Virus record (IMG/VR): IMGVR_UViG_3300045988_164982 | Direction: 5' to 3' (one strand) | DNA: 64,000 nt | DNA from: a virus | Shown here: positions 5,119-21,511 of the stretch, one piece after another | Numbering within the stretch: position 1 is the stretch's first letter | How the letters are laid out: the number at the start of each line of letters is the position of its first letter | Program-made: the position numbers and the translations under genes | The notes under the pieces: model-generated | What the model was told of the DNA's origin: nothing | Database searches by the model: none | What the model saw: the letters and a program-made list of their open reading frames with translations, nothing else

Positions 5119-5212
5119 CATTGTAGCCATAAAAGCAAACTTTTTGAAAAAATACTTTACATATGGCTACAAATATGTTATATTATTCTTGTAGCCAAAA
5201 ACAGCTACAAAA
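5119..5212. promoter_or_regulatory. Operator and promoter region between cI and cro
   Basis: TTGTAGCCATA at 5121-5131 and TATGGCTACAA at 5162-5172 are inverted repeats. TTGTAGCCAAAAACAGCTACAAAA at 5188-5212 is a palindrome. A TTTACA-N17-TATATT promoter spans the second half-site. Confidence 0.55.
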
Positions 5213-5465
5213 CAATGTAGAAGAGGGTGACATTTTGGAGAAAAAACAAAACAGAGAAGTAGACCAAAAGGAACTGCGGATTGCAATGATAAGAGCAGAT
5301 GTAACTATGGCACAGCTTATTGCTGGTCTAGAACTGTCTCCACCTGGCTTTTACCGCAAGTTAAACGGGAAAAGCCACTTTACAACCAAAGAGATAAGAA
5401 TTATTTCAAAAATTCTTTCTTTGACAGTTGAGGATAGAGATAAAATTTTTTTACTCTATTTGTAG
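5163..5465 (+). CDS. Cro-like HTH regulator; the start codon is uncertain
   Basis: The HTH is VTMAQLIAGLELSPPGFYRKLNGK. Alternative starts are TTG at 5235 and ATG at 5289. The stop codon overlaps operator copy O3 at 5458-5484. Confidence 0.5.
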   Translation: MATNMLYYSCSQKQLQNNVEEGDILEKKQNREVDQKELRIAMIRADVTMAQLIAGLELSPPGFYRKLNGKSHFTTKEIRIISKILSLTVEDRDKIFLLYL

Positions 5466-5728
5466 TCAGAAACAGCTACAAAATAAAGTAGTTCGGTGCA
5501 ACATATAGGGTTCTAGTTTGAAACTGCACTGTGTTCTTAAAAAGTACAGTACGCTCCGAGCACAGGATAAGGTAATGCGAGTCTACCTGCTAGAATCTTG
5601 TATGTTACATCGAACTATGAGAAAGAAAGGAAGATTTGAGATGTTGAACTACCACGGAGTCGGGATAGTGTGTACTATTGGTTGCTTACTGATATTGATT
5701 GCTTTGTAAAAAAGGAAGTGGAGAGGCT

Positions 5729-6013
5729 TTGAAATGGAAAAAACTTGTGCTTGCAGTTGCAGGTCTTGCGACAACATCGTTTATGATTCCACAATATCCC
5801 AACATAGAAACTGTATCAGCTGTATATACCGTAAAAAGCGGCGATACGCTTAGAGGTATATCGGAAAAGTTTTTGCCTCTAAACACTGGGGACAGGCGGT
5901 ATATCCTCGAATTTGAGGAAAGCATTGTAGAACTCAACCCAGAGCTTCAAAAAGACCGTGGCAGTATTTACCCTGGGCAGAAAATCCGCATTAATTATTG
6001 GGTAAAGGAGTGA
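5729..6013 (+). CDS. Secreted LysM-domain protein
   Basis: TTG start follows GGAGAGG. There is a signal-like LVLAVAGLATTSF segment and the LysM-like sequence YTVKSGDTLRGISEKF...IYPGQKIRI. Confidence 0.5.
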   Translation: MKWKKLVLAVAGLATTSFMIPQYPNIETVSAVYTVKSGDTLRGISEKFLPLNTGDRRYILEFEESIVELNPELQKDRGSIYPGQKIRINYWVKE

Positions 6014-6017
6014 GAGT

Positions 6018-7982
6018 ATGACAGATAGGGGGGCTTACAAAATGAAATTTCAAAAATTAATATTGGAAAATTTTCGAGGGATGAAAAAGCTGGAGGTGGA
6101 TTTTGCTGGTGCCTCTTGTAATGTATATGGTAGAAACGCCAGTGGAAAGACAACGATAGCCAATGCTATCTGCTGGTTGCTTACTGGCTCAGCCATGACA
6201 GGAGAAAAGGATTTTTCTCCTAAGACGGCAGGCAGTCACAATCTCCACCACAAGGCAGAGCTGACAATCCAGAAGGATGACGGCAGCATAGTAGTCCTGT
6301 CTAAAGACTATTATGAAAAGTGGACCAAAAAAAAAGGAGCTAGTACAGCTGAACTGACAGGACACACTACAGACTTCGCTATTGATGGAGTACCACAGAA
6401 AGAGAAAGACTATATAAAAGCTGTAGAGACTCTCTGTGGTGGCAGTACGGACAAGATAAAGGAAATATCTATACTAGGGTATTTCAGCGAATCCATAAAG
6501 GCTGACGACCGCAGGAGGGTATTGCTGGAGGTTTGCGGTGATGTGTCTGATGAGGAAATCATGAAAGACGACAGACTACAGGGATTGGAAAAATTCCTGC
6601 GAGTGCCTGGCACCGAGAATCAGCAGTATTCCATTGATGATTATCGGGCCATCGCTCTTAAACAGCGTTCCAAGCTAAAAAAGGAGCTTGATACACTGCC
6701 TGAGCGTATTGATGAACAGAATAACAGCTTGCCTGAGGCTGTAGATGAAAAGGCTTTACAGACGGAGTTAGAAGAGTTACAGAGGCTTAGAAACGAGCTG
6801 AGCAATACAGATAAAGTTGTCGCCAAGGAAGCGGCCATCAGAGGTCTGAGGGCTGGCATAGAAAAAGAAAAGGTTCAATTCACACAGGAACAGGTCGAGG
6901 CCAATTTAGAAGCTCAGAAAAAAATAGATAGGCTGATGGCCAAGAAAAGCGAATACAGCGAACGAAAAAGTAATCTAAGTTTTGAGGTTATACAGAAACA
7001 GCAGAATGTCAGCCAGATGGCTGATAGGCGTCAGAGCCTGCTGAATGAGTGGCAGGAAGTGGCCTCTTTGAAATGGCGGGATGGAGATAATATATGTCCC
7101 TGCTGTGGTCAGGAACTTCCAGCTGATCAGCTGGAGACGAAAAAGGCAGCGTTTATGGACAATATAAAGAACCGCAAAGAGGAAATCCGCAAGCAGGGGC
7201 AGACCTGTAGCGATGCCTTGATTCAGCAGTTAAAGGCTGAATTAGAGCTACAGCAGGGTGAGGTTGACAGACTGGACAAGGAAATAGCTATTCTTGAAAA
7301 AGAAAAAGCCCTGATATATGGACAGATGAAAGAACCCGCACCTTTTGAGCATACCAAAAGATACAAAGAGGCTATGGAGAGAATCCGCCAGCTGGAGAGC
7401 GAGAGCACAGACAATATAGCTGTTGCCAGGGAACAGCTTGCAGATGTAGATAAACGCATCCGAGAGGTAAATGAGGGGCTGGCTACAAAGGCTATGACTG
7501 AAAAAATCAAAGCTCGTATTACGGAGCTGGAGAAAATCCAGCAGGCCAAGGCTTCCCAGTTGGAGCAGGTAGAGCATGGCCTTTATCTCTGTGATGAGTT
7601 CATACGCATTAAGGTGGCTATGGTGACAGAGAAAATAAACAGCAGATTCAAAACTATCAGCTTCCAGCTCTTCAAGGAGCAGGTAAATGGCGGTATCAAG
7701 GAATGCTGTGAGGCACTGATACCATCACCAGATGGCACAATGGTTGAGTACAAGGCCGCCAATACAGCTGCCAAGGTAAATGCAGGACTGGAAATTATAG
7801 GAGTCCTCTCAGAGCACTATGGCATGAATATGCCAATTATCATGGACCAGGCCGAAAGTGTAATCAAGCTTGTTAATATCAATCAGCAGTTAATCAGGCT
7901 GATTGTGGCAGACCAGCCATTAGAAATAGAGGTTGTAGATACCTTAGCAGGTATAACAGATACAAAGAGAAGGAGTGCATAA
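6018..7982 (+). CDS. Rad50/SbcC-like SMC-family ATPase with a CxxC zinc hook
   Basis: The N-terminus is ENFRG...GRNASGKTT, a Walker A motif. The middle is a long coiled coil containing CPCCGQELP. The C-terminus has IIMDQAES, which resembles Walker B. Confidence 0.7.
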   Translation: MTDRGAYKMKFQKLILENFRGMKKLEVDFAGASCNVYGRNASGKTTIANAICWLLTGSAMTGEKDFSPKTAGSHNLHHKAELTIQKDDGSIVVLSKDYYEKWTKKKGASTAELTGHTTDFAIDGVPQKEKDYIKAVETLCGGSTDKIKEISILGYFSESIKADDRRRVLLEVCGDVSDEEIMKDDRLQGLEKFLRVPGTENQQYSIDDYRAIALKQRSKLKKELDTLPERIDEQNNSLPEAVDEKALQTELEELQRLRNELSNTDKVVAKEAAIRGLRAGIEKEKVQFTQEQVEANLEAQKKIDRLMAKKSEYSERKSNLSFEVIQKQQNVSQMADRRQSLLNEWQEVASLKWRDGDNICPCCGQELPADQLETKKAAFMDNIKNRKEEIRKQGQTCSDALIQQLKAELELQQGEVDRLDKEIAILEKEKALIYGQMKEPAPFEHTKRYKEAMERIRQLESESTDNIAVAREQLADVDKRIREVNEGLATKAMTEKIKARITELEKIQQAKASQLEQVEHGLYLCDEFIRIKVAMVTEKINSRFKTISFQLFKEQVNGGIKECCEALIPSPDGTMVEYKAANTAAKVNAGLEIIGVLSEHYGMNMPIIMDQAESVIKLVNINQQLIRLIVADQPLEIEVVDTLAGITDTKRRSA

Positions 7983-7984
7983 AT

Positions 7985-8770
7985 ATGTCAAACGAAATTA
8001 TAAATACCGAACCCAAGGAGATGGAGATTACCCGTCCAGGCTTTGAAAGCGAGAAGGGCTTTGCTCTCCTCCAGCGCATGGCGAAGATGTTCAATCTTTC
8101 CACCATTGTTCCTGAGACATTCAGAGGTGAAAAGAACATTGGCAACTGTGCAATAGCTATCAATATGGCCCAGAGAATGGGAGCTGATCCTTTGATGGTT
8201 ATGCAGAATATGTACATTGTCTACGGCAATCCAGCCTGGAGCAGTAAATTCATGATAGCCACCTTTAACAGCTGTGGCCGTTATGAGGCTATCAAATACA
8301 AGGTTACTGGAGAACGTAGTACAGATACTCAGGGCGTAATTGCATGGACTAGAGAGAAATCCTCCGGTGATATTATCGAGGGGCCGGAGGTAACAATAGG
8401 CATTGCCAAGGCTGAGGGCTGGTATAACAAGTCTGGCAGTAAATGGAAAACCATGCCGGATCAGTTGCTTAGATACAGAGCTGCCAGCTGGCTGATTCGT
8501 ACTACAGCCCCAGAAATCAGCATGGGATTGATGACTAGTGATGAAATAGAGGATATTGGGCCAGAGATGGAGCACGTTGTTGACCTTGATGAAGCAATGA
8601 GCAGTGTTGAGAATGATATGGCTGCTCTGCCAGAAGCTAAGCCTATTGTTGAGGCACCTGTGGCAGAGTTTAAGATGGAAGCTCCCAAGAGCAAGACTAC
8701 AGCAAAGGCAACAAAGCCGGCAAAGACAGCAGAAGCACCCGCTGCTGAAATGGAAGAGCCTGGCTTCTAA
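7985..8770 (+). CDS. recT: RecT-family single-strand annealing protein
   Basis: It carries the KWKTMPDQLLRYRAASWLIRTTAPE motif that is characteristic of RecT. Confidence 0.85.
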   Translation: MSNEIINTEPKEMEITRPGFESEKGFALLQRMAKMFNLSTIVPETFRGEKNIGNCAIAINMAQRMGADPLMVMQNMYIVYGNPAWSSKFMIATFNSCGRYEAIKYKVTGERSTDTQGVIAWTREKSSGDIIEGPEVTIGIAKAEGWYNKSGSKWKTMPDQLLRYRAASWLIRTTAPEISMGLMTSDEIEDIGPEMEHVVDLDEAMSSVENDMAALPEAKPIVEAPVAEFKMEAPKSKTTAKATKPAKTAEAPAAEMEEPGF

Positions 8771-9469
8771 TTGGATATTAGGGTAATTGGTTCAGGGAGT
8801 GCTGGTAACTGCTATCTCATAAATGATGGCAAAACCGCACTCCTACTGGACGCAGGTATAGCATTTAGCGAGATTCAGAAGGCTATGGACTTTGACACAA
8901 GTCATATCAGAGGGTGCCTGATAACTCATCAACATGGGGACCATGCTAAGGCAGGGAAGGACATGGCCAAAAGGGGAATCAAGGTTTATGCTAACGTAAA
9001 TACAGCTGTAGCAGTAGGCAAGGGGGCCAAGGTGCTGGAGCCCCTTACTAGCTATGGTATAGATACTATGACTATTCTACCTTTTGAGGTGGTGCATGAT
9101 GTCCCGTGCTTCGGGTACAGGATAGACAGCTTGGTAACAGGCGAGAGACTGGTGTACATAACAGATGCTGCGGGTTTTAGGTTCTCTATCAAAGGAACTA
9201 CCCATCTGCTGGTAGAGTGCAATCACAGTCATGAGAAGCTGATTGAGAGAGTCAGAACCAATGAGATGAATCCTGTGCTGGGGAATCGAGTAGCTAAAAC
9301 TCATATGAGTTTTGAGACACTGACCAGGTATCTGTCTGATGGGCGTATTCAGGTGGACAAACTAAAAAAGGTAATGCTGATACATCTATCAGATGGAAAC
9401 AGTGATGCCGGAATGTTCCGTGAAGCCATACAGGAGCTTTTGCCAGAGGCTGAGGTTACTGTGTGGTAG
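8771..9469 (+). CDS. MBL-fold metallo-hydrolase, putative nuclease
   Basis: It has the HQHGDH motif (HxHxDH) and a TTG start. It completes the recombination module with the ATPase and RecT. Confidence 0.7.
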   Translation: MDIRVIGSGSAGNCYLINDGKTALLLDAGIAFSEIQKAMDFDTSHIRGCLITHQHGDHAKAGKDMAKRGIKVYANVNTAVAVGKGAKVLEPLTSYGIDTMTILPFEVVHDVPCFGYRIDSLVTGERLVYITDAAGFRFSIKGTTHLLVECNHSHEKLIERVRTNEMNPVLGNRVAKTHMSFETLTRYLSDGRIQVDKLKKVMLIHLSDGNSDAGMFREAIQELLPEAEVTVW

Positions 9470-9746
9470 AGAAAGGGGGCCGGCAGAGATGGGAGAAAAT
9501 GGTAGCTTTCAAGGGCTGTGGATTCCAAGGGAAATTTCGCTTCTACCAGTCAGCATAACGCAAAAGGTTCTGCATGGATAAGAAGTTTGTGGCTATCTGC
9601 ATGGAAGTTAAGTTCCAAAAGCGAGCAAAAGAGTTCACACTAGACGATTACACCACATTTGTCAACAACTTTGACGGCTACATTGCTGAGGTTCAGGAAG
9701 AAGCTATCAAGCGTATGAGTGCGTGAGTCGAACTGGGGGAATTGAA

Positions 9747-10160
9747 ATGAGAAAGAATTGTATGGCGGAAGTTGCTAAGGCTCTCGGTTTAGAGCTGGAA
9801 GAAGTGTTTCGTATTGATGGTGATGAGCATTATTTTAGGCTTACAGATACAGGCTTAGGAATGTCGATGTGTTCAGAAAACAAAAATTGGTTTGTTGCTC
9901 CTATCAATGCACTAAACGGATTGCTACTTGGTGAAAATGAGATTATTAAGCTGCCATGGAGGCCGCAGGAAGATGAGAAATATTATGTTCCATTTATTGC
10001 TACCAAGCCTATAAATATGTATGACGAACATTACTGGCTGAACGAGGACATCGATATGAAACGTTATCGTATGGGGCTGGTATGTAAGACTAGAGAAGAA
10101 GCTACTGCTATGACAAAGAAAATGTTAGCAGTAGCAAAGGAGGGTAAAAATAATGGCTAA
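9747..10160 (+). CDS. Member P3 of the early-protein family
   Basis: It contains MAEVAKALGLELEEVFRI...KLPWRPQEDEKYYVP...YRMGLVCKTREEATAMTKKML. The RBS GGGGGA lies 7 nt before the ATG. Confidence 0.65.
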   Translation: MRKNCMAEVAKALGLELEEVFRIDGDEHYFRLTDTGLGMSMCSENKNWFVAPINALNGLLLGENEIIKLPWRPQEDEKYYVPFIATKPINMYDEHYWLNEDIDMKRYRMGLVCKTREEATAMTKKMLAVAKEGKNNG

Positions 10161-10566
10161 TCACATAGCGGAAGTAGCCCGGATGTTGGGCGTAGAGATA
10201 GGAGAGATATTTAAGATTGCTGATGATACTCATGACGATTGCCAGAGATACCATCGATTCACAAAGAACGCTGGTATTGAAATATCAGATGATGGTATTG
10301 AATGGAAAACGGCCGGTACAGTGATATTGAAATTTCTCCTGATGGGGAATGTTAGAATTGTCAAACTGCCGTGGAAGCCTAGGGAAAATGAGAGGTATTA
10401 CTATCCACTTCCTAGCGACAACGACCTGTGGGGAGGTTCGACTTGGACAGATAGTAACTACGATAATATGAGACTTAATCGTGGTCTTGTCTTAAAGACA
10501 AGAGATGAAGCTGTCGCGGTAGCCAAGAAAATGCTGACAGTGATGCAGGAACAGGCGGTTGAGTAA
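10153..10566 (+). CDS. Member P4 of the early-protein family
   Basis: It contains MANHIAEVARMLGVEIGEIFKI...KLPWKPRENERYYYP...LNRGLVLKTRDEAVAVAKKML. It overlaps P3 by 8 nt. Confidence 0.65.
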   Translation: MANHIAEVARMLGVEIGEIFKIADDTHDDCQRYHRFTKNAGIEISDDGIEWKTAGTVILKFLLMGNVRIVKLPWKPRENERYYYPLPSDNDLWGGSTWTDSNYDNMRLNRGLVLKTRDEAVAVAKKMLTVMQEQAVE

Positions 10567-11240
10567 TGGCACAGGAAGTAGTATTAGGCGAGATTAAGGA
10601 CTTCAAAGATGATGGCGAGGTGGTTATAACAGCCACCCTGCCTAACCTCGACAGAGCACTGCTTAGGCAGTATAAAAAAGTTGAAGTAGGCTTTTGCGAT
10701 GGCAGAACCTTATCCCCAGAACAAAGGCGGAAGATATATGCCATATTTGGGGAGATTGCAGATTGGATAGGCGATGAAAAGGAATCTGTCAAGGAGCAGA
10801 TGAAATGGGAGTTTGTCCTCAACCGAATGGATAAGATGCGTAAGAGAATGTTCAGTCTTTCAGATGTGGATATGAACACAGCCTCGGACTTCATTACATT
10901 TCTGATAGATTTCATGTTGGAACATGATATTCCATCACGCATACCGCTGATAGAGCTTTGCGATGATGTAGGAAAGTATGTATATGCTTGCTTGATGAAT
11001 AAACGTTGCTGCGTGTGTGGCAAGCATGGAGAACTACACCACTTAGAGGGCAGCAGGGTAGGAATGGGAAGTGACAGGACAGAAGTACCGCATATAGGCA
11101 GGGAAGCAATCTGCTTATGCAGGGAGCACCATACCATAGTCCATAACATGAGCGAGTACAAGTTTATGCATGATAATCATCTTGTAGGAGTGAAAATAGA
11201 CGAAGCAATAGCTAAAAAGCATAAACTTAAAGCAAAATAA
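10566..11240 (+). CDS. HNH-motif nuclease-like protein
   Basis: The Cys/His clusters are CCVCGKHGELHHLE and CLCREHHTIVHN. Confidence 0.5.
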   Translation: MAQEVVLGEIKDFKDDGEVVITATLPNLDRALLRQYKKVEVGFCDGRTLSPEQRRKIYAIFGEIADWIGDEKESVKEQMKWEFVLNRMDKMRKRMFSLSDVDMNTASDFITFLIDFMLEHDIPSRIPLIELCDDVGKYVYACLMNKRCCVCGKHGELHHLEGSRVGMGSDRTEVPHIGREAICLCREHHTIVHNMSEYKFMHDNHLVGVKIDEAIAKKHKLKAK

Positions 11241-11285
11241 AATAAAAAAGAACAGTTTGGTAAATGAAAGGATTGATACTGATAT

Positions 11286-12173
11286 ATGCAGGCAGAGATT
11301 ACACCATTATTGCAGGCTCTAAATCCAGAGAACATTGGCACATATAACAGATTGCTGGCTCGTGCTATAGGGCTGAGTGAGGCTGTCGCGTATGCCAGTT
11401 TGGTCGCAAAATTCATATACTACAGTAAAAATGATCTGCTTGATGATGAGGGCTTTTTTTATTCAACCGTTGAGGATTTAGAAGAAAGCACAAGTTTATC
11501 AAAGAAGCAGCAAATCAGGGTTATAAAAAATCTAATTGAACATGGATTGATAGATTGCAAAAGGAAAGGTCTGCCAGCTAAACGATATTTCAAGATACTT
11601 TACAACGAAGAACGATTACGAGAATTGTTCAAGAAAAACAGTGGTGATGGGGATAACAAGAAGTTACCTTTGGGCACAACACTAGGTGACAAAAGGGAAC
11701 AACACTCGGTGACAAAAGGGAACAACAGTAAGTGCCAAAAGGGAACGGAAAACTATATAAATAAAACTATATTAAAAAACCATGATATAAAAAACAATAT
11801 AAATACATCGCCTAACGGTAATGATGGGACAACTGCAAGCAATAAAACGGAAGCATCTGCGAGTCCCAGTGAAAAACAGATAGAAGCTCAGTTCAACGAG
11901 GTATGGAAACTGTACCCAGCAGGTCGTAAGCAGGGAAAAGAACCTGCTAGAAAATCTTTCTTTAAGGCAATCAAAGACGGAGTGTCATTTGAAACCATCA
12001 AAGCTGGATTGTTAGCTTACAAAAAGCAGATAGAGTTCCGAAAAACTGAAACCAAGTACATAAAACAAGCCTCTACATGGTTTAATCAGAAATGCTGGGA
12101 GGATGAATATGAAACCGAAGTAAGACATTCAGAGGACGATTACCAGTGGGAAAGATTGGGGACATGGGTATGA
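11286..12173 (+). CDS. Replication initiator or replisome organizer, DnaD-like, with the origin inside the gene
   Basis: The N- and C-terminal regions resemble phage replisome organizers. The coding sequence contains 23-bp iterons and an AT-rich tract. Confidence 0.65.
   Translation: MQAEITPLLQALNPENIGTYNRLLARAIGLSEAVAYASLVAKFIYYSKNDLLDDEGFFYSTVEDLEESTSLSKKQQIRVIKNLIEHGLIDCKRKGLPAKRYFKILYNEERLRELFKKNSGDGDNKKLPLGTTLGDKREQHSVTKGNNSKCQKGTENYINKTILKNHDIKNNINTSPNGNDGTTASNKTEASASPSEKQIEAQFNEVWKLYPAGRKQGKEPARKSFFKAIKDGVSFETIKAGLLAYKKQIEFRKTETKYIKQASTWFNQKCWEDEYETEVRHSEDDYQWERLGTWV
11685..11753. repeat. Iterons of a putative origin of replication
   Basis: Three 23-bp direct repeats, GGTGACAAAAGGGAACAACA(C/G) twice and AGTGCCAAAAGGGAACGGAAAAC once, are followed by an AT-rich tract at 11754-11830. 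Confidence 0.6.
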
Positions 12174-13024
12174 GCGAACTTACCAGTTTGGCAGATATAA
12201 TCAAGGCTGATAACCAAGGCGATAATTGCCAGCAATTTAATTATGACCAGCACGAATATGAAAAACAACGAGTAGAAATCTTCAACGACATTCCAGGCGA
12301 TCTTAACGAGCAAGACGGCTATGAGTGTAATGCCTGTAAGAATCGAGGGGTTGTGGCGATTCTGGTTGGAAATAACCAAAGGTGGACTAGGGAGATACGA
12401 TTCTGCAAATGCAAGAAAATTCGTGATGGAATCATGCGTATGAAGCGGTCAGGGTTGGAGAATCTTTTAAAAAAATACAGATTTGAAAATTTTCAGGTAA
12501 CAGAGCAATGGCAGCAGACAATAAAAGAAAAAGCTGTTAGATTCTCTGAAAATCCTAGTCTCATGTTTTACATAGGCGGTCAAAGCGGGTGTGGAAAAAC
12601 AATGTTATGCACCGCTATTGCAAGGAAATTGCTATATTCAGGCATGAGCCTTAGATATGTTATGTGGCGTGATACATCAGTGAGATTAAAGGGATTAATC
12701 AAGGAAGAGGCACAGTACTCCCAGCTTATGGAAAAATTAAAACACATAGATGTTTTATACCTTGATGATTTTCTAAAAGTTCCTATCGGACAGGAAGAAA
12801 GCAAGCCTACTTGCGCTGATTTATCCTTGGCTTTGGAAATTATCAACTATCGCTACAATGCAAAATTGATAACTCTCATATCCAGCGAATGGACTGTGAG
12901 AGAAATCATAGATTTTGACGAGGCTTTAGGAGGCAGAATATTCGAGTTAGGCGGTGAATACTGCGTAGGAGTAAAAAAGGACAAAAAACGAAATTTTAGA
13001 ATCAGGAACATCGAGGAAATATAA
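12170..13024 (+). CDS. DnaC/IstB-like helicase loader ATPase
   Basis: Walker A is GGQSGCGKT and Walker B is VLYLDDF. An ATGA overlap links it to the initiator gene. Confidence 0.8.
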   Translation: MSELTSLADIIKADNQGDNCQQFNYDQHEYEKQRVEIFNDIPGDLNEQDGYECNACKNRGVVAILVGNNQRWTREIRFCKCKKIRDGIMRMKRSGLENLLKKYRFENFQVTEQWQQTIKEKAVRFSENPSLMFYIGGQSGCGKTMLCTAIARKLLYSGMSLRYVMWRDTSVRLKGLIKEEAQYSQLMEKLKHIDVLYLDDFLKVPIGQEESKPTCADLSLALEIINYRYNAKLITLISSEWTVREIIDFDEALGGRIFELGGEYCVGVKKDKKRNFRIRNIEEI

Positions 13025-13158
13025 AAACTCGTGTGGGGCGTTTTAAGACTGCATTGTACAGTTTTGCAATAATGCATCGCAAAACACATTAACGGCACCT
13101 TAGAATCGCTCTGAATGAAAATTAAAGGTATTTGCAGAAATGAAAAGAGGTAATTTTT

Positions 13159-13569: not shown

Positions 13570-13721
13570 AAACAAAAGTTCTGTTTTAATAAATTAAGCA
13601 AATATATGAATTAAATAAAGCTGGTGAATAAAATGCAAATTGAGTATATCCCATGCATAAGTACGTTGGCTAAGGTTTTTGCAATAGGATTTTTAGTTGG
13701 CTTGTTTGTAGGATTTGCTGT

Positions 13722-14060
13722 GTGGTGCTAAAAAATGGAGTGAGTGAGATGTTAAGCAAATACAGAGCTGGCAAGAATAGTCTGCTGAAGTTAGCATATA
13801 TTAAACTTCCAAAAGGCAAGTGCGTTTATTGCCATATATGTGTTCATTTAGGCAGAGGAATTATTACCTATGTGTCCAAGAAGTATTATTGTTCGTTGCA
13901 AAAAGCACAGGAAACACTAGATGATTTGGCGGACTCTAAAGGCTATGATTGGGGGGGCGAGGTAAGTAGATTACAGCAGATAGCATTTAATCATAAACAC
14001 AAAACATTTTACTTTACGGGTATTAAATCCAGCCCTCAATGGCTGGCAGCACAGGGGTGA
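13722..14060 (+). CDS. hypothetical protein
   Basis: Open reading frame only. Confidence 0.35.
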   Translation: MVLKNGVSEMLSKYRAGKNSLLKLAYIKLPKGKCVYCHICVHLGRGIITYVSKKYYCSLQKAQETLDDLADSKGYDWGGEVSRLQQIAFNHKHKTFYFTGIKSSPQWLAAQG

Positions 14061-14065
14061 TTCTA

Positions 14066-14266
14066 ATGGATATTGCTCCATGCAAGGGCTGTACGAAAAG
14101 AAAAATGGGATGTCATGACAGCTGCGATGCTTACAAAGAATGGCTAGCCATAAGAGGCGAAATCGTAAAAGCATTGAGAACTGAGAGTGCACAGGATTAC
14201 TCGGTTTCAAGGGAATCACGACATCTAAGGTATCTGAGAAAGCAAAAAACAGATAAGGTGGTTTAA
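14066..14266 (+). CDS. Cys-rich small protein
   Basis: The Cys cluster is CKGCTKRKMGCHDSCDAY. The RBS AGGGGTGA precedes the ATG at 14066. Confidence 0.4.
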   Translation: MDIAPCKGCTKRKMGCHDSCDAYKEWLAIRGEIVKALRTESAQDYSVSRESRHLRYLRKQKTDKVV

Positions 14267-14267
14267 A

Positions 14268-14615
14268 TTGGAAAATAAGTGGGACATGGTGGAGAGGTTG
14301 GCGAAAGAGGGGTATCAATGCCCCTTTCCTAACTGTGAAAAATGCACTCTGCCAGATTGCTATAAAGATGAGATTGAGGCAAGAGTAAGGCATTTGCAAC
14401 ATACTCCAGAGGCTTCAAAACTTGTGAGAAGAGTTAAGGGGATTGAATTGTTTGCAGATGGGAAATATGTAAAAACCTACAAAAGTCAAGATGCTTGTAT
14501 AAGGGACATACAGTCGCATTTTGGCTTTGGCAGGGAAACTATGAGAAAGAAAATCAAGCAGTGTGTGAAAAATAACAGCAGTTTAGGCAAATATACATTC
14601 AAGTTTTTGACTTAG
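14268..14615 (+). CDS. Hypothetical, possibly DNA-binding
   Basis: TTG start follows AAGGTGG. The C-terminus has a basic helix-rich segment. Confidence 0.35.
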   Translation: MENKWDMVERLAKEGYQCPFPNCEKCTLPDCYKDEIEARVRHLQHTPEASKLVRRVKGIELFADGKYVKTYKSQDACIRDIQSHFGFGRETMRKKIKQCVKNNSSLGKYTFKFLT

Positions 14616-14633
14616 TAAGGATAGGAAAATTAC

Positions 14634-14948
14634 ATGAGTACAATATTTAGTCCAGAGGTCGTAAACCTTGACAAATACGAATCGAAACGAGGAGTAAGAC
14701 AGGTTTGCAAGATATTTGATGATAGCACGAATGAAGATAATTTCTTTTATGCAATATTAGCTCTGCCAGATGTTGAAGATTTGGCGGTATATCAAGGAAA
14801 AAGGCCTGATATTCGGTTTTACAACCTAGAAAGAGCACAAAGGCACCTCGATAAAACAGCGGACAAGGCAGGTCATCGGTGGTGTGGTAGAAACGAAGCT
14901 ATTCCTGCTTTCAAGCAAGTAATGCGTGAATATCATAGGATTTGGTGA
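14634..14948 (+). CDS. hypothetical protein
   Basis: Open reading frame only. Confidence 0.35.
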   Translation: MSTIFSPEVVNLDKYESKRGVRQVCKIFDDSTNEDNFFYAILALPDVEDLAVYQGKRPDIRFYNLERAQRHLDKTADKAGHRWCGRNEAIPAFKQVMREYHRIW

Positions 14949-14953
14949 TGTGA

Positions 14954-15409
14954 ATGGTAAAAGCTAAATACGGAAATAATAAATGTATGGTGATGGGGCA
15001 TACCTTTGACAGCAAGATGGAGGCCGACTATTACCTTTACCTGCTGGAGGAACAGCGAAAAGGAAAGGTGCTGGAGTTTTCCTTACAGCCGAAGATTAAC
15101 TTACAGCCACAATTTAGACTGGCAGGGAAAATGGTGCGACCCATAATGTACACTCCAGACTTTAAGGTGAAATACAGTACTGGCTTGGAAGAGTATATTG
15201 ATGTTAAAGGTATGAGCACGCAGCAGGGCGAATTAAAACGAAAAATGTATCAATACCAATATGAGCGAGAGGGAGGAATCCCTCTCATTTGGGTGACACA
15301 AAGTAAAAAATACAGCACTACAGGTTGGATTGATTACTTTGAACTCAAAAGAATACGGAGAAAAAACCGCACAATTAGTGTCAGCAAGGATAGTTCCGTA
15401 TGGGGTTAA
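14954..15409 (+). CDS. DUF1064-family phage protein
   Basis: The N-terminus KAKYGNNKCMVMGHTFDSKMEADYYLYL matches the signature of the DUF1064 phage family. Confidence 0.55.
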   Translation: MVKAKYGNNKCMVMGHTFDSKMEADYYLYLLEEQRKGKVLEFSLQPKINLQPQFRLAGKMVRPIMYTPDFKVKYSTGLEEYIDVKGMSTQQGELKRKMYQYQYEREGGIPLIWVTQSKKYSTTGWIDYFELKRIRRKNRTISVSKDSSVWG

Positions 15410-15434
15410 AGATGGCAGAAATAGAGGTGACAGC

Positions 15435-16052
15435 ATGATAAGATTGGAAAACCTAGAGGTATATAACCTTGGCAGAGCTATTTATTCGGCTAGAAATCCG
15501 ATGAACAGCTGGGGAAAGTCAGACAGTGACATTGAAAATGATGTTTTGGGAGAAAACGACCTGAATCTTGCTAATAAATTATTTAAGGCTGGTTCTGACC
15601 ACAGTAAGTTTATGAGGCAGATTTTTGTGACGGTGGACATTACAGCTCCTTTTTACTGGTGGAAAGAGGCTGATACTTACAAGGTCGGAACTGTAGCGAA
15701 TAGCTGTAGTACCATGCACAAGCTGATGGCTAGACCATTAGAGCTGAATGATTTTTCGTATGATGTAGACGATTTGGATTTTCAGGAATATCTAAAGAAC
15801 ACAATTGCCTATATCAATGGGAGAATGGAGGAATATCACAAGGCAGAAAATATCCGTCAGAAGTGGATTGTATGGAGGTCAATTATTATGATATTGCCGT
15901 GCTGTTACAATCAGCGAAGAACACTGACATTGAATTATGCCGTGCTCGCAAATATGCTCAAAGCTAGGGAAAACCATAAGCTATCAGAGTGGAGAGAGTT
16001 CTGTAGGTTTATGTATCTAAAGTGTCCGTATTTAGAGAGGATTATGCGATGA
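15435..16052 (+). CDS. hypothetical protein
   Basis: ATG at 15435 follows AGAGGTGA. The extension from 15330 overlaps the previous gene. Confidence 0.4.
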   Translation: MIRLENLEVYNLGRAIYSARNPMNSWGKSDSDIENDVLGENDLNLANKLFKAGSDHSKFMRQIFVTVDITAPFYWWKEADTYKVGTVANSCSTMHKLMARPLELNDFSYDVDDLDFQEYLKNTIAYINGRMEEYHKAENIRQKWIVWRSIIMILPCCYNQRRTLTLNYAVLANMLKARENHKLSEWREFCRFMYLKCPYLERIMR

Positions 16053-16402
16053 AGATCGAAGAAATAAAGGAATTGAGAGTAAAACCAATGCTGGGGGTGG
16101 CGAGACGGAGATGTGACAAATACGGCTTTGAGGTTTTGGTTGCTGACCTTACGGCAGAAGCTAAGGAAGTAGGCGAGGCATGGGATAAAGCCGTGGAGAG
16201 CAATGAGGACGATGAATACAACAAGCATTTTGCACATACGGCAGAAGAACTATATGACCTTGCCACCAGATGTGTTAGTGCTTTGTATGTAATGCAGGAA
16301 ATGCAGTCTTGTCCGTGCAAGGACTTGGTGCAGTCTGTAGCAAATCAGGTATATTACAAAGACCATGCAAGGGGGTACGACAATGGCAAATATTCCGATT
16401 GA
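16049..16402 (+). CDS. hypothetical protein
   Basis: ORF with RBS GAGAGG. It has an acidic, helix-rich composition. Confidence 0.35.
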   Translation: MKIEEIKELRVKPMLGVARRRCDKYGFEVLVADLTAEAKEVGEAWDKAVESNEDDEYNKHFAHTAEELYDLATRCVSALYVMQEMQSCPCKDLVQSVANQVYYKDHARGYDNGKYSD

Positions 16403-16568
16403 TAACGAACATCGTATGCAGGTTTACAGCAGACGAAGAGGCATAATTCTCGAAAAGTATCGCAATGGAACTATTTCTATGGATAAGGCCTTTGATGAGT
16501 TGAGAGCACTTTCCAAAGAATTTGATACAAACAACAAGCCTGTTCAGGGTGTTATGATGAAGATGTGA
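16383..16568 (+). CDS. hypothetical small protein
   Basis: ORF with RBS AGGGGG. Confidence 0.3.
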   Translation: MANIPIDNEHRMQVYSRRRGIILEKYRNGTISMDKAFDELRALSKEFDTNNKPVQGVMMKM

Positions 16569-18314
16569 TTGATAATGCGGATAAGCAAAATAGCATTAGA
16601 AAATTTTTGTGGAGTACAAAGCCTAACCGTAAATTTAAACGGAAAATCAGCAGATATTATGGCAGCAAGCGGAGCTGGAAAAACTGCTTTAGCTAATGCC
16701 TTGCCTTGGCTTGTGTGTGGGTGCTCGTATGACGAATGTATTGAGTTTTATCCCATTACCCTAGGCAAACAGACCAATTACCAATGGGGTAAGGTAGATG
16801 TTACATTTATCCTGCCTAGCGGGGTTGAAGTCTCATTAGGTAAAGCGTATTACGAATCAGCTTTTGCCTACAACATTTATTATGATGTCGTGGACAATGC
16901 CTGTGGGTGCTACTATTTTATCAACGGAGAAAAGACATCCAAGGTATCATTTGAAGAACTGCTGCTGGAAATAACAGGCTGTACCAGGGACGAATTATCA
17001 TTGCTTTTTGTAAACGAATATATATGGAATATGGATTATGCAAAAAGAAGAAACCAAGTGCTAGAATTTGTCCCCAGTGTTACTGACGAGGAAATACTGG
17101 GGAGAGATGGGCGATTAGAAATGCTTGTCACTATTCTCAAAGAGAATGACATGGATGTGGTTGCGTATAGCAATCTTGCCAGGGCACGCAGAATGGCAAT
17201 AAAAGATGAAATTACAAACCTGCCTACGCACTTACGGGACATGGTAGACGAATTGCCAGACTTTAAGCAGGAATCTGTGGAAGATGTAGAAAAGGAAATA
17301 AAGGAATACGAGGAAAATATTTCATTGCTGGAGCAGCAACGCCAGCACATTGATGAGAGTTATGATGTAAAAGAATGTTTGAAGAAAATTCATTCCCTAA
17401 AAATAAAGATAGGTAAAGCCGAGAAAGCGTATTGCTTTCATGCTATAGAGAGTAATAAGCCAAAGGAAAAGATCATACGAGAATTGCTACTCCGTGAGGG
17501 AGAGCATATCGCTGTTGTGCATAGACTAAGAGCAAACATTAAGACCTTAAAAAGGCAATACAATGATGATAAATCAAATGAGTGTGTGAAAGATGCACTA
17601 AATGATAAATTGTTGGAATTAAAGGAAGCTGTAAGAAATCAAAAGAACTGCCACAATGATATAGAAGCCTTGAAAATGTCTTGCGAGATTGTGCCAGATT
17701 ACAGCCTTACGGAGGAATTTGCTGTTTTAAAAGGGCGTATAGATGTTTATGAAGCACGAAAGGCGATTGCTATAGAAGCAGAAGAACAGAGGATAAACCA
17801 ACTTGTTGAAATGAACCACAAGGCTATAGAGGATGCAAAACAAAGAAAAGGAGTCTTAATGCAAGGCGAACGATTACTAGGAATCCTAAATCAAGAGGTG
17901 GAACATTATCTTGAATGTCACGCAGAGTATGAGAACCTAACATACCTAATTGATATGTGCAGACTGTACGCTCTTTGCAAGGCAAGGCTGCTTAATGAAA
18001 GAATGGCAGAAATATTCCCTACATTGCGATTTGTTTTTTATGAAATGCTGGCCAATGGCACAATGATAGAAAAATGTTCGCCAACTGTGTGCGTGAATGG
18101 CGAGTTTGTCCCATTTGCAATTGCTAGCAGGAGCGAAGTTCAAAATGCTAAGTTAGAGATGGCAGAAGCATTACGGCTGTTCTATAACAAAGATATTCCT
18201 ATAGTGGTAGATGACTATTTATCAGTAGATGGCTGTATAAAGCCGTCAGAACAGTTTGTACGCATGATATACGACAATAGGTATACAAATATTACCGTAG
18301 ATAAAAAAGACTAA
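16569..18314 (+). CDS. Second SMC/RecF-like coiled-coil ATPase
   Basis: It has ENFCG...AASGAGKTA (Walker A), a long coiled coil and a C-terminal IPIVVDDYLS (Walker B). No CxxC hook is present. Confidence 0.6.
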   Translation: MIMRISKIALENFCGVQSLTVNLNGKSADIMAASGAGKTALANALPWLVCGCSYDECIEFYPITLGKQTNYQWGKVDVTFILPSGVEVSLGKAYYESAFAYNIYYDVVDNACGCYYFINGEKTSKVSFEELLLEITGCTRDELSLLFVNEYIWNMDYAKRRNQVLEFVPSVTDEEILGRDGRLEMLVTILKENDMDVVAYSNLARARRMAIKDEITNLPTHLRDMVDELPDFKQESVEDVEKEIKEYEENISLLEQQRQHIDESYDVKECLKKIHSLKIKIGKAEKAYCFHAIESNKPKEKIIRELLLREGEHIAVVHRLRANIKTLKRQYNDDKSNECVKDALNDKLLELKEAVRNQKNCHNDIEALKMSCEIVPDYSLTEEFAVLKGRIDVYEARKAIAIEAEEQRINQLVEMNHKAIEDAKQRKGVLMQGERLLGILNQEVEHYLECHAEYENLTYLIDMCRLYALCKARLLNERMAEIFPTLRFVFYEMLANGTMIEKCSPTVCVNGEFVPFAIASRSEVQNAKLEMAEALRLFYNKDIPIVVDDYLSVDGCIKPSEQFVRMIYDNRYTNITVDKKD

Positions 18315-18329
18315 GGAAAGGGCGAAAAC

Positions 18330-18539
18330 ATGAATAACGAAACTAACAACACAAACCAGGCACAGGAGAATAATGAAGCTAGAGAAGCGATACGTGAAGT
18401 GTTAGAGAAAAATGTTGCCATCAAGGCTGTACTGGGAACATTGATATTCTTTACCATAATCGCTGTTATTGCACTGCTTAACGGAGCTGTGGTAGCTTTA
18501 GGGCTACTGCCTATATTAGCTGCATTGGGGTTGATTTAA
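18330..18539 (+). CDS. Small membrane protein
   Basis: The C-terminal segment ~LGTLIFFTIIAVIALLNGAVVALGLLPILAALGLI is hydrophobic. Confidence 0.35.
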   Translation: MNNETNNTNQAQENNEAREAIREVLEKNVAIKAVLGTLIFFTIIAVIALLNGAVVALGLLPILAALGLI

Positions 18540-19229
18540 TTGGCTAGACCTATAGAAAATTTAATTGGACAAAAGTTTGGGTATTTGACTGCCCTGCACC
18601 CAGAGAAAAGGAATGGCATTATTGAATGGTTGTGTGTGTGCGAATGTGGAAATAAGATTTTTGTTCGCACCTCATATTTGAAGTCGGGCAGGGTTAAGTC
18701 GTGTGGGTGCTTGAATTGGGATCAGCAAAAAAACGATAAGGCTATGAAGTACAAGCTCAGACAGAATTTACGCAAGGCAGCATTAATGCGGAATTTTGAC
18801 GGTATGATTATCAATTCGACCAAGAGCACTAGAGGCGAGGGGCTGAGTGCTGTCCGAGGGGTAAATTGGCATAAGGGCAATCAAATGTGGGAGGCTCGAA
18901 TCTTTGTAAATGGAGAGAATCACCATTTGGGGTACTATAGAACGCTTGATGAAGCTGCAAAGGCCAGAGATAAGGCTGAGAAAAAGTATCTTGCACCTGT
19001 TATTCGCAAGTACAACAGAATAAAGAAGAAATTGGAACGGCTCGTTCAGGAAGAATGGGATGCTGGCAAGGAAGCACGCATAAAGGAACTGAAACAGCAG
19101 TTGGAGGAGTGGGAGAAGCGTAAGGAAAATGTAGACCGCAGTTTACGAAGTGCAGAGGATAGGAGGAAAGCAAGACATAATGCAAACAGAGATAAAAGAC
19201 GAGAGGGTTTCAATCCTGACTTACAATGA
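18540..19229 (+). CDS. AP2-domain DNA-binding protein with an N-terminal zinc ribbon
   Basis: The N-terminus has CVCECGNK...SCGC. GVNWHKGNQMWEARIFVNGENHHLGYYRTLDEAAKARDKAEKKY is AP2-like. Confidence 0.6.
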   Translation: MARPIENLIGQKFGYLTALHPEKRNGIIEWLCVCECGNKIFVRTSYLKSGRVKSCGCLNWDQQKNDKAMKYKLRQNLRKAALMRNFDGMIINSTKSTRGEGLSAVRGVNWHKGNQMWEARIFVNGENHHLGYYRTLDEAAKARDKAEKKYLAPVIRKYNRIKKKLERLVQEEWDAGKEARIKELKQQLEEWEKRKENVDRSLRSAEDRRKARHNANRDKRREGFNPDLQ

Positions 19230-19728
19230 TTATTGCACGTTGGCCAAGGAATATCTGAGGTCGTACAATCAATTTAGAAGCACTTTGGAAAACCTCAAAA
19301 ATGACAAGAGGGCTATGTACAAAAGACTCCAAGAGTATGAAGATGTATCAGCAGGTGTCAGCAAATACGGATTGGCTGCTACTGTACCAGCTACAGGAAG
19401 TTCTGCCGGCAGTGTTGTGGAAAGAACATCGGAGAAAAGAGAGCGTGTGCGTGTAAGGCTAAAGGCGATAGATAGGGACATTGAGGAATTGGAAACTATT
19501 ATCCGTAAGATAGACCGAGCACTAACCTTTATGCCGACCATAGAGGGGGAAATGGTACGCCTCCATTTCATTGAAAGATTTAAATGGTATCAGGTAGGAG
19601 AATCGCTGGGCATGAGCCGCCATTGGGTGACGGAGAAAGGGAATGAGGCATTGAAGAAAATGGCATTAATGCTGTTTGGAAGTGTTGCAGCAATGCCAGA
19701 ACACAACAGGTTCTGTTTTGTGAAATAA
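19180..19728 (+). CDS. ArpU/RinA-like late-gene transcriptional regulator with a sigma-70 region-4-like domain
   Basis: The C-terminal HTH is WYQVGESLGMSRHWVTEKGNEALKKM. It is the last gene of the early block. GGAGGA lies upstream of the ATG at 19180. Confidence 0.5.
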   Translation: MQTEIKDERVSILTYNDYCTLAKEYLRSYNQFRSTLENLKNDKRAMYKRLQEYEDVSAGVSKYGLAATVPATGSSAGSVVERTSEKRERVRVRLKAIDRDIEELETIIRKIDRALTFMPTIEGEMVRLHFIERFKWYQVGESLGMSRHWVTEKGNEALKKMALMLFGSVAAMPEHNRFCFVK

Positions 19729-19733
19729 GAAAA

Positions 19734-19769
19734 GGAGCACCAAACCTTGCGGAATGGTGCTCCTTTTTA
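19734..19769 (+). terminator. Rho-independent terminator
   Basis: A perfect 9-bp stem, GGAGCACCA...TGGTGCTCC, is followed by TTTTT. Confidence 0.8.
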
Positions 19770-19779
19770 CTTTGTGATA

Positions 19780-21230
19780 CGCTTTCGCTGTCAACTACCT
19801 ACCACCTATAGAGGTGGAGGCTTGTAAGTCAAAAATCACTTAGGTACTAACGATATTATCTCCCTAATTTTGCCTACATCATCGGATGGTTGACAACACC
19901 CGTCTAGCCTAAAAGTATACTTCTAAGCTGTTAGTTTTGGTTTTTTCTCACCTGAAACATATCTCACACCTAATTGCTGAATATTCATAGCACCAACTCT
20001 ATCATCATTACTGCAATACCCACATTTACATCTAAAAATGTGAGATTTGTGGTTACGACTCTTTTTATCAATACATCCACACTTAGGACATCTCTGAGAC
20101 GTATATTGTGCAGGTACTTTTAATACAGCACTATGATTTAAATTAGCCTTATAGGTTAAGAATTGCTCTAACTGGTAAAAAGCCCATGAACGCTTCTCAC
20201 AACGACTTTCAGTAGAGCCTTTTAAATTATCCTCATCAAAGGTAATCCCTGTTAAATCTTCAAGTACAAAAAGTGTATTTTTACCATACTTCTTTATGAG
20301 TGTCTTAGATAGACAGTGATTAACATCTGTCATCCAACGGTTCTCTCGTCCTGAAATACGTTTTAATACTCTTTTAGCCGATTTTGTACCTTTAGACTGT
20401 AACTCTGCTCTTACTTTAGCAAATCTATTACGTTTAGTCCTAGCCTTATTTCCTGAAAAGAATGTAGTCTTTCCTTGCTCATCATAACACACTGCATGAA
20501 ATCTAATGCCTCTGTCAATACCAACTACATGAGCAATCTGTTCTGTATTTACAGCCTCAATTAACTTAGTAGCTGAAATGTGTAAGTACCAACTACCATC
20601 ATGTTCTACTAACTTAGCACTGCCAAGTTTCCAATCAGAAGAGAAATATTTATCAAAATTATCACTACATATAGGTGTAGCAAATATTCTGCCCTCTAAA
20701 GTATTAATAGATAAATTCCCGTTGGCTAACTTAGACCAATCACGATTACGAACAAGGTCGACTTGCGGATGTGCAAAATTTATAGGCTTCTCGAGCCATT
20801 CAAGATTCCTAGAAACATGATACCTCTTCTTAGTATTCTTATCTTGGAATCTATACGGATTTTGTTTCAACTGTGTTTTTACAGTCTTATATCTTGCAAT
20901 TGTAGAACGAATTGCAGATTGTGCCATCATGGATTTTAATCCAAATTTTACACGAATCTCACTATATATCCCTTTTTGTAATTTTAGCTGACTTAACTGA
21001 AACCCGTGTGTAAAGATATATTCGGAAATATAATTACAGGCTTGTCTATATTGCTCCATAGTATTAGTAACTTTAGAAACATCTTCAATACGATGTAAGT
21101 CTAACTTTACTTTTATTGTAATACCTTGTGTTATACTAGACAATCATATCACCTCCTTTGTTTAATTTATTTAATATATCTAGCAATTCCTCCCCCACTT
21201 CTATAAGTGGGGGGAGGAATTGCTAAAGTG
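19780..21230 (-). mobile_element. IS200/IS605-family insertion sequence carrying tnpB only (IS1341-like)
   Basis: A TnpB gene is followed by a perfect 20-bp-stem hairpin at 21181-21225. The 3' flank of about 140 bp is where the omega-RNA and right end are expected. Confidence 0.6.
19923..21143 (-). CDS. tnpB: TnpB (OrfB) RuvC-like RNA-guided nuclease
   Basis: The protein is 406 aa with a C-terminal CPKCG...CKCGYC zinc finger and a RuvC-like D/E/D pattern. TTG start follows AGGAGG. Confidence 0.8.
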   Translation of the reverse strand: MSSITQGITIKVKLDLHRIEDVSKVTNTMEQYRQACNYISEYIFTHGFQLSQLKLQKGIYSEIRVKFGLKSMMAQSAIRSTIARYKTVKTQLKQNPYRFQDKNTKKRYHVSRNLEWLEKPINFAHPQVDLVRNRDWSKLANGNLSINTLEGRIFATPICSDNFDKYFSSDWKLGSAKLVEHDGSWYLHISATKLIEAVNTEQIAHVVGIDRGIRFHAVCYDEQGKTTFFSGNKARTKRNRFAKVRAELQSKGTKSAKRVLKRISGRENRWMTDVNHCLSKTLIKKYGKNTLFVLEDLTGITFDEDNLKGSTESRCEKRSWAFYQLEQFLTYKANLNHSAVLKVPAQYTSQRCPKCGCIDKKSRNHKSHIFRCKCGYCSNDDRVGAMNIQQLGVRYVSGEKKPKLTA

Positions 21231-21380
21231 TTTTGAAGCGTATTCGCTCAATATCTTGAATATCATGTTATTCAACGAACGATTATCAGCTTTGCCAAGC
21301 TCTATAAGTGCTGTTTTCAGCTGGGGAGTAATACAAATATTACAGCGAACTTTTTCTTCACCAGATAAGAAATTTGCCAT
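21201..21380 (-). CDS. Small ribbon-helix-helix protein of the Arc/Mnt/CopG type
   Basis: The 59-aa product is MANFLSGEEKVRCNICITPQLKTALIELGKADNRSLNNMIFKILSEY. It is divergent from the antirepressor operon. Its 3' end runs into the IS hairpin. Confidence 0.4.
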   Translation of the reverse strand: MANFLSGEEKVRCNICITPQLKTALIELGKADNRSLNNMIFKILSEYASKHFSNSSPHL

Positions 21381-21483
21381 TTTGTAGCCCTCACTTTCGA
21401 TAATATTAACTTTATTATATGTTTACTATGTGCCGTTGTCAAGGCTCAAACGCATATATAATGCGCATTTACGCATAATAATG

Positions 21484-21511
21484 TTGCTAAAAACAGCTAC
21501 AAATAGTATAA
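21484..21511 (+). promoter_or_regulatory. Operator-like site overlapping the promoter of the antirepressor operon
   Basis: TTGCTAAAAACAGCTACAAA matches the right half of the cI/cro operator, AAAACAGCTACAAA. A TATAAT box follows at 21506-21511. Confidence 0.5.

Follow-up and report, generated by a model that had tools for sequence, protein, structure and literature searches.

A cI/cro-type operator recurs on the core promoter of a distant operon with antirepressor-family genes in a temperate phage of the human gut

Does the repressor of a temperate phage act only at its own cI/cro switch, or could it also control a promoter located many genes away? This question is raised by a 64,000-nucleotide stretch of viral DNA, IMG/VR virus record IMGVR_UViG_3300045988_164982 (hereafter the window), in which a palindromic motif of the cI/cro region recurs about 16 kb from the switch, upstream of an open reading frame (ORF) that we call orf122 and of a gene of an antirepressor family. 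An earlier note on this DNA had suggested that the distant promoter is repressed directly by the prophage repressor, by a small divergently encoded protein, or by both. We found that the distant copy is specific, lies on the core promoter of the orf122 operon, and is conserved among relatives in the way expected of an operator. Judging from these sequence statistics and comparisons, we consider it fairly likely that the cI-like repressor, and probably Cro as well, bind at positions 21481-21503 and repress the orf122 operon.

The cI-like repressor (165 amino acids [aa]; 4556..5053, minus strand) consists of an N-terminal Xre-type helix-turn-helix (HTH) domain (Pfam HTH_3, E=7e-16) and about 80 C-terminal residues of unknown fold. 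Pfam gave HTH_3 alone, with no S24 peptidase or autocleavage domain, and an AlphaFold2 (AF2) model showed a five-helix N-terminal domain followed by a C-terminal domain of low confidence (predicted local distance difference test [pLDDT] <50). The rightward cro-like gene (76 aa, a length also found in public contig calls; 5235..5465, plus strand) has a TTG start after GAAGAGGGTG and matched Pfam HTH_26 (E=7e-4) and the PHROG 4583 transcriptional repressor (E=1e-8). It is preceded by the promoter TTTACA-17-TATATT, with a TG before the -10 (5156..5184, plus strand; 10/12 consensus).

The putative operator of the cI-like repressor is a 23-bp palindrome, TTGTAG(C/T)C-N7-G(G/A)CTACAAA. Its first full copy at the switch, O1 (TTGTAGCCAAAAACAGCTACAAA; 5189..5211, plus strand), begins 5 bp after the cro -10, covers the cro promoter from about -3 to +21, and is the same or nearly the same in all relatives. 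The second, O3 (TTGTAGTCAGAAACAGCTACAAA; 5460..5482, plus strand), carries the cro stop codon (TAG, 5463-5465) inside its left half TTGTAG. The earlier note had counted three to four copies of the motif between cI and cro, one of them at 5458-5484. The motif is indeed there, but only two copies are full palindromes and the rest are lone half-sites; moreover, the copy at 5458-5484, although a full palindrome, overlaps the cro stop and is thus downstream of cro. One of the isolated half-sites, a right half GCTACAAA, is located in the cro promoter spacer (5166..5173, plus strand), and the other, a left half TTGTAGC (5121..5127, plus strand), falls on the minus-strand TACAAT, the -10 of a candidate promoter for cI. 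The regions of these two promoters also mirror each other: the 22-nt arms 5110-5131 and 5162-5183, 30 nt apart, are 77% complementary, and each arm puts a half-site on or beside a promoter element.

O1 and O3 resemble each other beyond the site itself, their 50-nt flanks being 76% alike as a direct repeat. In the window type their centers are 271 bp apart, compared with 260 bp in a lineage whose cI is 71% identical (L015 9579-9861). Since this difference of 11 bp amounts to one helical turn and keeps the sites in phase, looping between O1 and O3 is suggested. Binding to the two sites, which bracket cro, would probably be cooperative, with a DNA loop between them like that of TP901-1-type switches.

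We then asked how specific the motif is. In the whole window, the 13-mer AAACAGCTACAAA occurs exactly at 5199, 5470, and 21491 only, and allowing 1 mismatch added no copy (0.21 expected). The complete 23-mer TTGTAGCCAAAAACAGCTACAAA was matched at 5189-5211 (0 mismatches), 5460-5482 (2 mismatches), and 21481-21503 (3 mismatches). No further site appeared in the window when 5 mismatches were allowed, and shuffled sequence gave zero 23-mer matches. A position matrix was trained on five sites of the cI/cro region from three lineages, with the distal site kept out of the training. It scored O1 and O3 at 35.9 bits each and 21481-21503 at 24.5 bits, while the next best score on both strands (128 kb) was 8.5 bits and the background had a mean of -40.5 (standard deviation, 11). 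The motif therefore does not occur at comparable density elsewhere in the window, which the earlier note had named as a ground for rejecting its proposal, and a chance origin of the distal copy is excluded. A scan of 185,579 species genomes with the operator pattern returned single chance matches only, in coding or host intergenic DNA; the phage is absent from these species representatives.

The distal operator (ATGTTGCTAAAAACAGCTACAAA; 21481..21503, plus strand) matches TTGTAGCCAAAAACAGCTACAAA at 20 of 23 positions. Its right half is a perfect GCTACAAA, and its left half agrees at 5 of 7 positions. The site is centered at about -27 of the orf122 operon promoter, TTGCTA-17-TATAAT (21484..21512, plus strand; 10/12 consensus), which lies 42 bp upstream of the orf122 GTG. 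The left half, ATGTTGC instead of TTGTAGC, doubles as the -35, and the site fills spacer positions 1 to 14. It had been proposed that 21484-21503 forms the spacer of the promoter; this is true of the rest of the site, which is contained in the 17-nt spacer, but TTGCTA is the -35 itself. Because the distal site covers the -35 and the spacer, a bound dimer would occlude RNA polymerase. Its left half is compromised by this double use as the -35, which probably makes it a weaker site than O1 and O3. The orf122 operon needs a promoter of its own, since the early operon of the phage ends at a terminator just upstream. An isolated half-site, TTTGTAGC (21381..21388, plus strand), is also found about 100 bp from the distal operator, between the ribosome-binding site and the ATG of a small divergent Arc-like gene. 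Its significance is uncertain; the extended 8-mer GGCTACAA has only 8 copies in the window.

To see how the distal site has been maintained, we compared six distinct variants of this promoter recovered from relatives. All six keep ATGTTGCTA and GCTACAAATAGTATAAT, that is, all 16 half-site positions. Substitutions within the site are confined to positions 10, 14, and 15, which belong to its 7 central, presumed non-contact positions, and many positions vary in the approximately 30 bp upstream of it. Conservation is not limited to the site, as the whole core promoter is conserved to about +15. The spacer of a sigma-A promoter, however, is normally unconstrained in sequence. That spacer positions with no sigma-A requirement stay invariant favors the operator reading.

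The site and the repressor were also found together. Each of the five long contigs in which the distal site was found (scaffold_79, IMG/VR 165932, NODE_435, NODE_25, and ULWZ01040934) also has this cI family and matching O1 and O3. The most divergent of the promoter variants is that of NODE_435 from ENA, which encodes an orf122 product that is 67% identical and a cI that is 71% identical, and has a Bro-N gene and a terminator upstream of the orf122 promoter in place of the Arc-like gene. Both families are small: among 5.8 billion protein clusters at 90% identity, cI accounted for four clusters and orf122 for two others only (representatives P0121 and P0122).

A fourth full site, TTGTAGCTAAAAACAGCTACATA (28.8 bits), is present on the contig of the window, about 5.2 kb to the left of the window start (L067 4179-4201). 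It lies 10 bp past the stop codon of a 64-aa gene (L067 3850-4201 region), and this gene is preceded by a strong terminator and by a promoter, TTGACT-16-TATAAT, that is likewise strong and contains a TGTAGC half-site in its spacer. The layout thus matches that of the cro promoter, cro, and O3. An equivalent site exists in NODE_435 (L015 19020-19042), where its right half GATTACATA copies the O3 variant of NODE_435 itself. With a full site outside the window in addition to the distal one, the putative repressor sites are dispersed over the genome. The fourth site is followed by a non-coding stretch of about 520 bp (L067 4202-4724) that is partly conserved in NODE_435 and precedes an apparently split IS110-like gene (a 146-aa ORF and a 269-aa Transposase_20 ORF). 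This stretch could be the non-coding RNA region of the IS110-like element; a search of it against Rfam gave nothing above noise.

Several observations weigh against repression of the orf122 operon by cI. The distal site stands alone: a second full site that would allow cooperative binding is absent nearby, and there is just the half-site about 100 bp away. Its left half has 2 mismatches in 7 positions, and use as the -35 accounts at least in part for the conservation of this half. The most distant cI, 71% identical, differs little in its recognition helix (SRSSVNQME versus SRASVNQIE). All relatives belong to one narrow lineage with no heteroimmune comparator, and the co-occurrence of site and repressor may be mere shared descent. 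Finally, "antirepressor" is a family name that comes from annotation, and the KilAC gene of the operon is dispensable in relatives.

The Arc-like gene has to be considered here as well. As the earlier note had indicated, a small ORF (59 aa; 21201..21380, minus strand) is divergent from the orf122 operon. It matched the PHROG 582 "Arc-like repressor" (E=6e-6), and an AF2 monomer of low confidence (pLDDT 68) had a disordered N terminus followed by two helices; no match was obtained in Pfam (even at E<=10), in a sequence search of PDB, or with Foldseek against PDB. Given the PHROG match and the predicted topology, which is the one expected of such a monomer, it is probably a ribbon-helix-helix (RHH) protein. 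Its promoter, TTGACA-17-TATAAT (21414..21442, minus strand), matches the consensus at 12/12 and stands back to back with the orf122 promoter, 41 bp away. Between the two -35 hexamers, two ACGCATA direct repeats, 21 bp apart, flank the palindrome AATGCGCATT (21450..21477). These repeats are a candidate site of the Arc-like protein. They are loosely conserved in relatives and are located upstream of both -35 hexamers, over neither core promoter.

This arrangement bears on a reading in which the distal site is used mainly by Cro: early in lytic growth the operon would be open, Cro would shut it later, and in the lysogen it would be silenced by the Arc-like protein in the manner of Mnt. Cro-type proteins usually share the operators of the repressor, as in lambdoid and TP901-1-type switches, and both the perfect-consensus promoter of the Arc-like gene, as for a maintenance repressor, and the ACGCATA repeats between the two promoters would fit such a division of labor. 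However, NODE_435 keeps the site and the promoter with a Bro-N gene instead of the Arc-like gene, indicating that the Arc-like protein is not a general lysogenic silencer, and the poor conservation and upstream position of the repeats do not speak for it either. We consider this reading unlikely.

Could the resemblance instead stem from the ancestry of the promoter sequence or from what a promoter needs, without any repressor binding, so that conservation reflects promoter function alone? The left half overlaps the -35, GCTACAAA contains a -10-like TACAAA, the cI/cro region has half-sites that fall on promoter elements, and the core promoter is conserved as a whole. Nevertheless, O1 lies at +1 and O3 after a stop codon. 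Neither is a promoter spacer, and the 20/23 match is thus not a duplicated promoter; on these grounds we rejected the idea that the similarity arose by duplication of a promoter. In addition, spacer positions 7 to 14 are invariant with no known sequence requirement, while central positions of the site vary, and the shuffles and the matrix exclude chance. We regard this explanation as quite improbable. A true P22-type immI module, in which RHH proteins of the Arc/Mnt type alone control ant and the primary repressor and its motif play no part, is in our view very improbable: the divergent Arc-like gene, a second RHH-like gene inside the operon, and a KilAC ant gene are all present, but the first gene of the operon is not Arc-like, ant is optional, no RHH operator covers the core promoter, and the motif is too specific and too conserved to dismiss.

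Repression of the orf122 operon by cI, which we favor, would work as follows. In the lysogen, cI bound from about -38 to -16 would exclude RNA polymerase from the orf122 promoter. Upon loss of cI, the orf122 operon would fire together with the cro operon, and the distal site, being probably weaker than O1 and O3, would be released first. Cro may later turn the operon down through the same site, and the Arc-like protein probably adds a second, local control. As to the direct repression by the prophage repressor that had been suggested, the presence of a site of the same type on the core promoter and its operator-like conservation are in agreement with it; binding and repression themselves are what we infer from them.

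The absence of an S24 domain from cI and of a Cheo/LexA box from the window makes an antirepressor operon controlled by the repressor, rather than by the SOS response, plausible. No Cheo/LexA box was found at the orf122 promoter or elsewhere in the window. Sequences resembling a Cheo box (CGAACNNNNGTTCG, <=2 mismatches) are in fact strongly under-represented in the window as a whole, with 1 found, at 2 mismatches, versus 9.7 expected from shuffles. SOS control according to the model of Gifsy, 186, and N15 was accordingly rejected. The phage does resemble those with LexA-controlled antirepressors (Gifsy GfoA/GfhA, 186 Tum, and N15 AntC) in that a non-cleavable repressor is combined with a separate antirepressor-family gene, but it differs in that the control element is the phage's own operator.

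If cI binds the distal site, the repressor regulon of a common human-gut prophage extends past the cI/cro switch. An antirepressor-type operon would then be under the negative control of the very protein that it may inactivate, which predicts positive feedback at induction. This feedback would operate in a phage with neither a LexA box nor an autocleavable repressor and would offer a testable handle on the induction of gut prophages. Going further, one can imagine a self-amplifying induction latch. The non-cleavable repressor would repress, through a weak operator fused to the -35, the operon of its own antirepressor or antirepressors (the KilAC cassette, Rha, or both); this promoter would be the first to open when cI dips, and whatever cI is left would be inactivated by the product. 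A second lock would be provided by the Arc-like protein, and O3 and the fourth site, each following a stop codon, would be roadblocks resembling stoperators. Such a latch would combine the logic of P1, P22, and L5 in a phage common in the human gut; we offer it tentatively, as a possible but doubtful extension. More generally, a one-line motif search can delimit the repressor regulon in uncultured phages.

How does this locus compare with known systems? In P22, Mnt and Arc control Pant, c2 is not known to act there, and the first gene of the operon is arc. The likeness to P22 immI drawn in the earlier note stands as far as a small gene, probably of RHH type, is divergent from an operon able to hold a KilAC-type antirepressor, in a region apart from the main immunity region. 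It fails in that the promoter carries the operator type of the primary repressor, orf122 is not arc, ant is optional, and an RHH operator over the -35 and -10 was not found.

Control by the primary repressor is closer to the dispersed C1 operators of P1 than to P22. In P1, an operator under C1 control belongs to the immI operon (c4-icd-ant); the C1 operators are asymmetric 17-mers, and control of ant further involves the c4 antisense RNA. C1 binds 22 dispersed operators, and the antirepressor (Ant1/2) operon of P1 is located in a separate immunity region (PMC8546580). The common feature is that operators of one primary repressor are dispersed and include one at a distant promoter, the full sites here being 5189, 5460, 21481, and L067 4179-4201. 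However, the proteins are unrelated (cI is of the Xre-type HTH_3 family), the sites are 23-bp palindromes, and there are four of them rather than 22. Moreover, a search of 19-22 kb against Rfam gave nothing above noise, so that no c4-like antisense RNA was found there, the host is a Gram-positive gut bacterium, and the phage integrates instead of being a plasmid.

The switch itself is reminiscent of TP901-1 and phi13, a CI/MOR switch type in which CI acts on OR, OL, and OD, palindromic operators that include one downstream of a small gene (OD) (PMC7250872, PMC8516035). As in these phages, cI and a small regulator are divergent, operators are found at the cro promoter and at the cro stop, and cI has no autocleavage domain, as reported for TP901-1 CI. 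There is, however, no detectable sequence homology: a PDB sequence search with cI gave five matches, to generic Xre-type HTH or related proteins, TP901-1 CI not being among them, and nothing significant was found with cro. Furthermore, we found two full sites and half-sites at the switch here, while the TP901-1 operators as described all lie within a switch of <1 kb (PMC7250872, PMC8516035).

Sites outside the immunity region are also a property of L5 and the Cluster A mycobacteriophages, whose immunity is treated in PMC6550527. Here, too, the four sites all point the same way with respect to transcription, and O3 and the fourth site come right after the stop codons of small genes; but they are palindromes and small in number, and the distal site is on a promoter. 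L5, by comparison, has about 30 asymmetric 13-bp stoperators that block elongation. Overall, the orf122 operon circuit lacks one or more of the defining features tested for each of the P22, P1, and TP901-1 families. It introduces no new principle, as P1 already provides an example of dispersed operators, P22 of a separate ant module, and TP901-1 of a downstream operator.

The orf122 operon itself spans 21554-25216. Its first gene, orf122 (122 aa; 21554..21922, plus strand), had no RHH or other family match in Pfam or PHROGs and is too long for Arc. It is followed by the 268-aa "antirepressor"-family gene, composed of ORF6N and KilAC parts (21956..22762, plus strand), which exceeded the Pfam cut-offs for ANT (E=4e-33; 114 bits, cut-off 25.3) and for ORF6N (E=8e-24; 84 bits, cut-off 27.8). 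Next come orf242 (22779..23507, plus strand) and a 64-aa NikA/RHH-like small regulator (23568..23762, plus strand) that matched a PHROG 876 transcriptional repressor (E=2e-7) and, weakly, a NikA-like family of Pfam. A 283-aa Rha-family protein (23874..24725, plus strand) matched Pfam Phage_pRha (E=9e-25) and the PHROG 1726 "anti-repressor" (E=1e-56). The last gene, of 111 aa (24881..25216, plus strand; from gene calls in the collinear contig L057), is convergent with an accessory cluster on the minus strand.

Members conserved in relatives are orf122, orf242, the RHH-like protein of 57 to 64 aa, the Rha-family protein, and the 111-aa protein. The ORF6N/KilAC gene is missing from L058-L060 and L062-L064, in which orf242 directly follows orf122 (e.g., L058 10932-12117), and in IMG/VR contig 165932 a Bro-N head replaces ORF6N on an identical KilAC tail (L006 19697-20518). 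By these comparisons, the ant gene behaves as a mobile, variable cassette, and what had been called the antirepressor promoter is better described as the promoter of the orf122 operon, in which an ant cassette is sometimes present. Any antirepressor activity of the KilAC and Rha proteins is a prediction from their families, of which the window has four KilAC, Rha, or Bro genes. Two further KilAC genes, at 36198-37055 (Bro-N and ANT) and 37141-37893 (Rha and ANT), lie on the minus strand upstream of the methylase/terminase region, and no operator-like site was found near either. When the distal region was compared with the isolated-phage collection, matches were confined to those parts of the ant gene that encode KilAC and ORF6N; the cI/cro switch region had no DNA match in that collection.

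The earlier note had also placed an insertion sequence (IS) between the switch and the distal locus. The IS is there, and comparison with relatives set its exact limits at 19790..21231 (minus strand). It is an insertion of the IS200/IS605 family with TnpB only (tnpB 19923-21143; Pfam OrfB_IS605 and Cas12f1-like_TNB): within these limits there is no TnpA and no ORF of >=45 aa besides tnpB and short ORFs overlapping it. The early operon and the Arc-like gene are separated by a bidirectional terminator hairpin (ATACGCTT / AAGCGTAT), and the element is inserted exactly in the loop of this hairpin. It provides the Arc-like gene with its final 9 codons and its stop. As a result, the C terminus of the Arc-like protein, ASKRKRITK in intact relatives, reads ASKHFSNSSPHL here. 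Relatives with the empty site GATACGCTTTCGCT|TTGAAGCGTATTC are IMG/VR contig 165932 (L006 ~18842), IMG/VR contig 162904, and L013 (~9712). The IS is present in L057, L060, L061, L064, and L065 and absent in L058, L059, L062, and L063; since these contigs have an identical neighboring gene, it is a recent polymorphism. It is incidental, with no evident role in the regulatory link. A hairpin with a 17-bp stem was noted at its tnpB-proximal end (21182-21224).

The window represents a temperate siphophage of a human-gut Firmicute. Its G+C content is 41%, the genome is of the Firmicutes phage type, and it is collinear with scaffold_79 of the ENA contig set ERZ28620964. Public assemblies, for the most part of human-gut metagenomes, contain the exact cI protein in 192 blocks. 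The integrase is encoded at 2815-3864 on the minus strand. To its left (window 1-2815), small rightward ORFs and a methylase remnant make up the right arm of the phage. The right-arm genes adjoin host genes in L068-L070, and the integrase adjoins host genes (tRNA synthetase, GreA, and SepF) in L049 and L051-L054, from which we conclude that the window is a circular or tandem-junction form of the phage.

A long early operon runs rightward and encodes an SMC-like ATPase, a RecT-like protein, a metallo-beta-lactamase, an HNHc protein, a replication initiator, a DnaC-like protein, a single-stranded DNA-binding protein (SSB), and a DUF1064 protein. Its last gene is a 182-aa sigma/ArpU-like transcriptional regulator (19180..19728, plus strand; PHROG 36 transcriptional regulator, E=2e-20). 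Downstream follow, in this order, the IS, the small divergent gene, the orf122 operon, the leftward accessory cluster, the two KilAC genes, the terminase, a P22-type coat protein, and the tail genes. The accessory cluster (25306-32000, minus strand) contains ArdA antirestriction, RadC/JAB, amidoligase, DUF3846, and GGACT genes. These gene types are usual in conjugative elements; here they separate the orf122 operon from the late genes.

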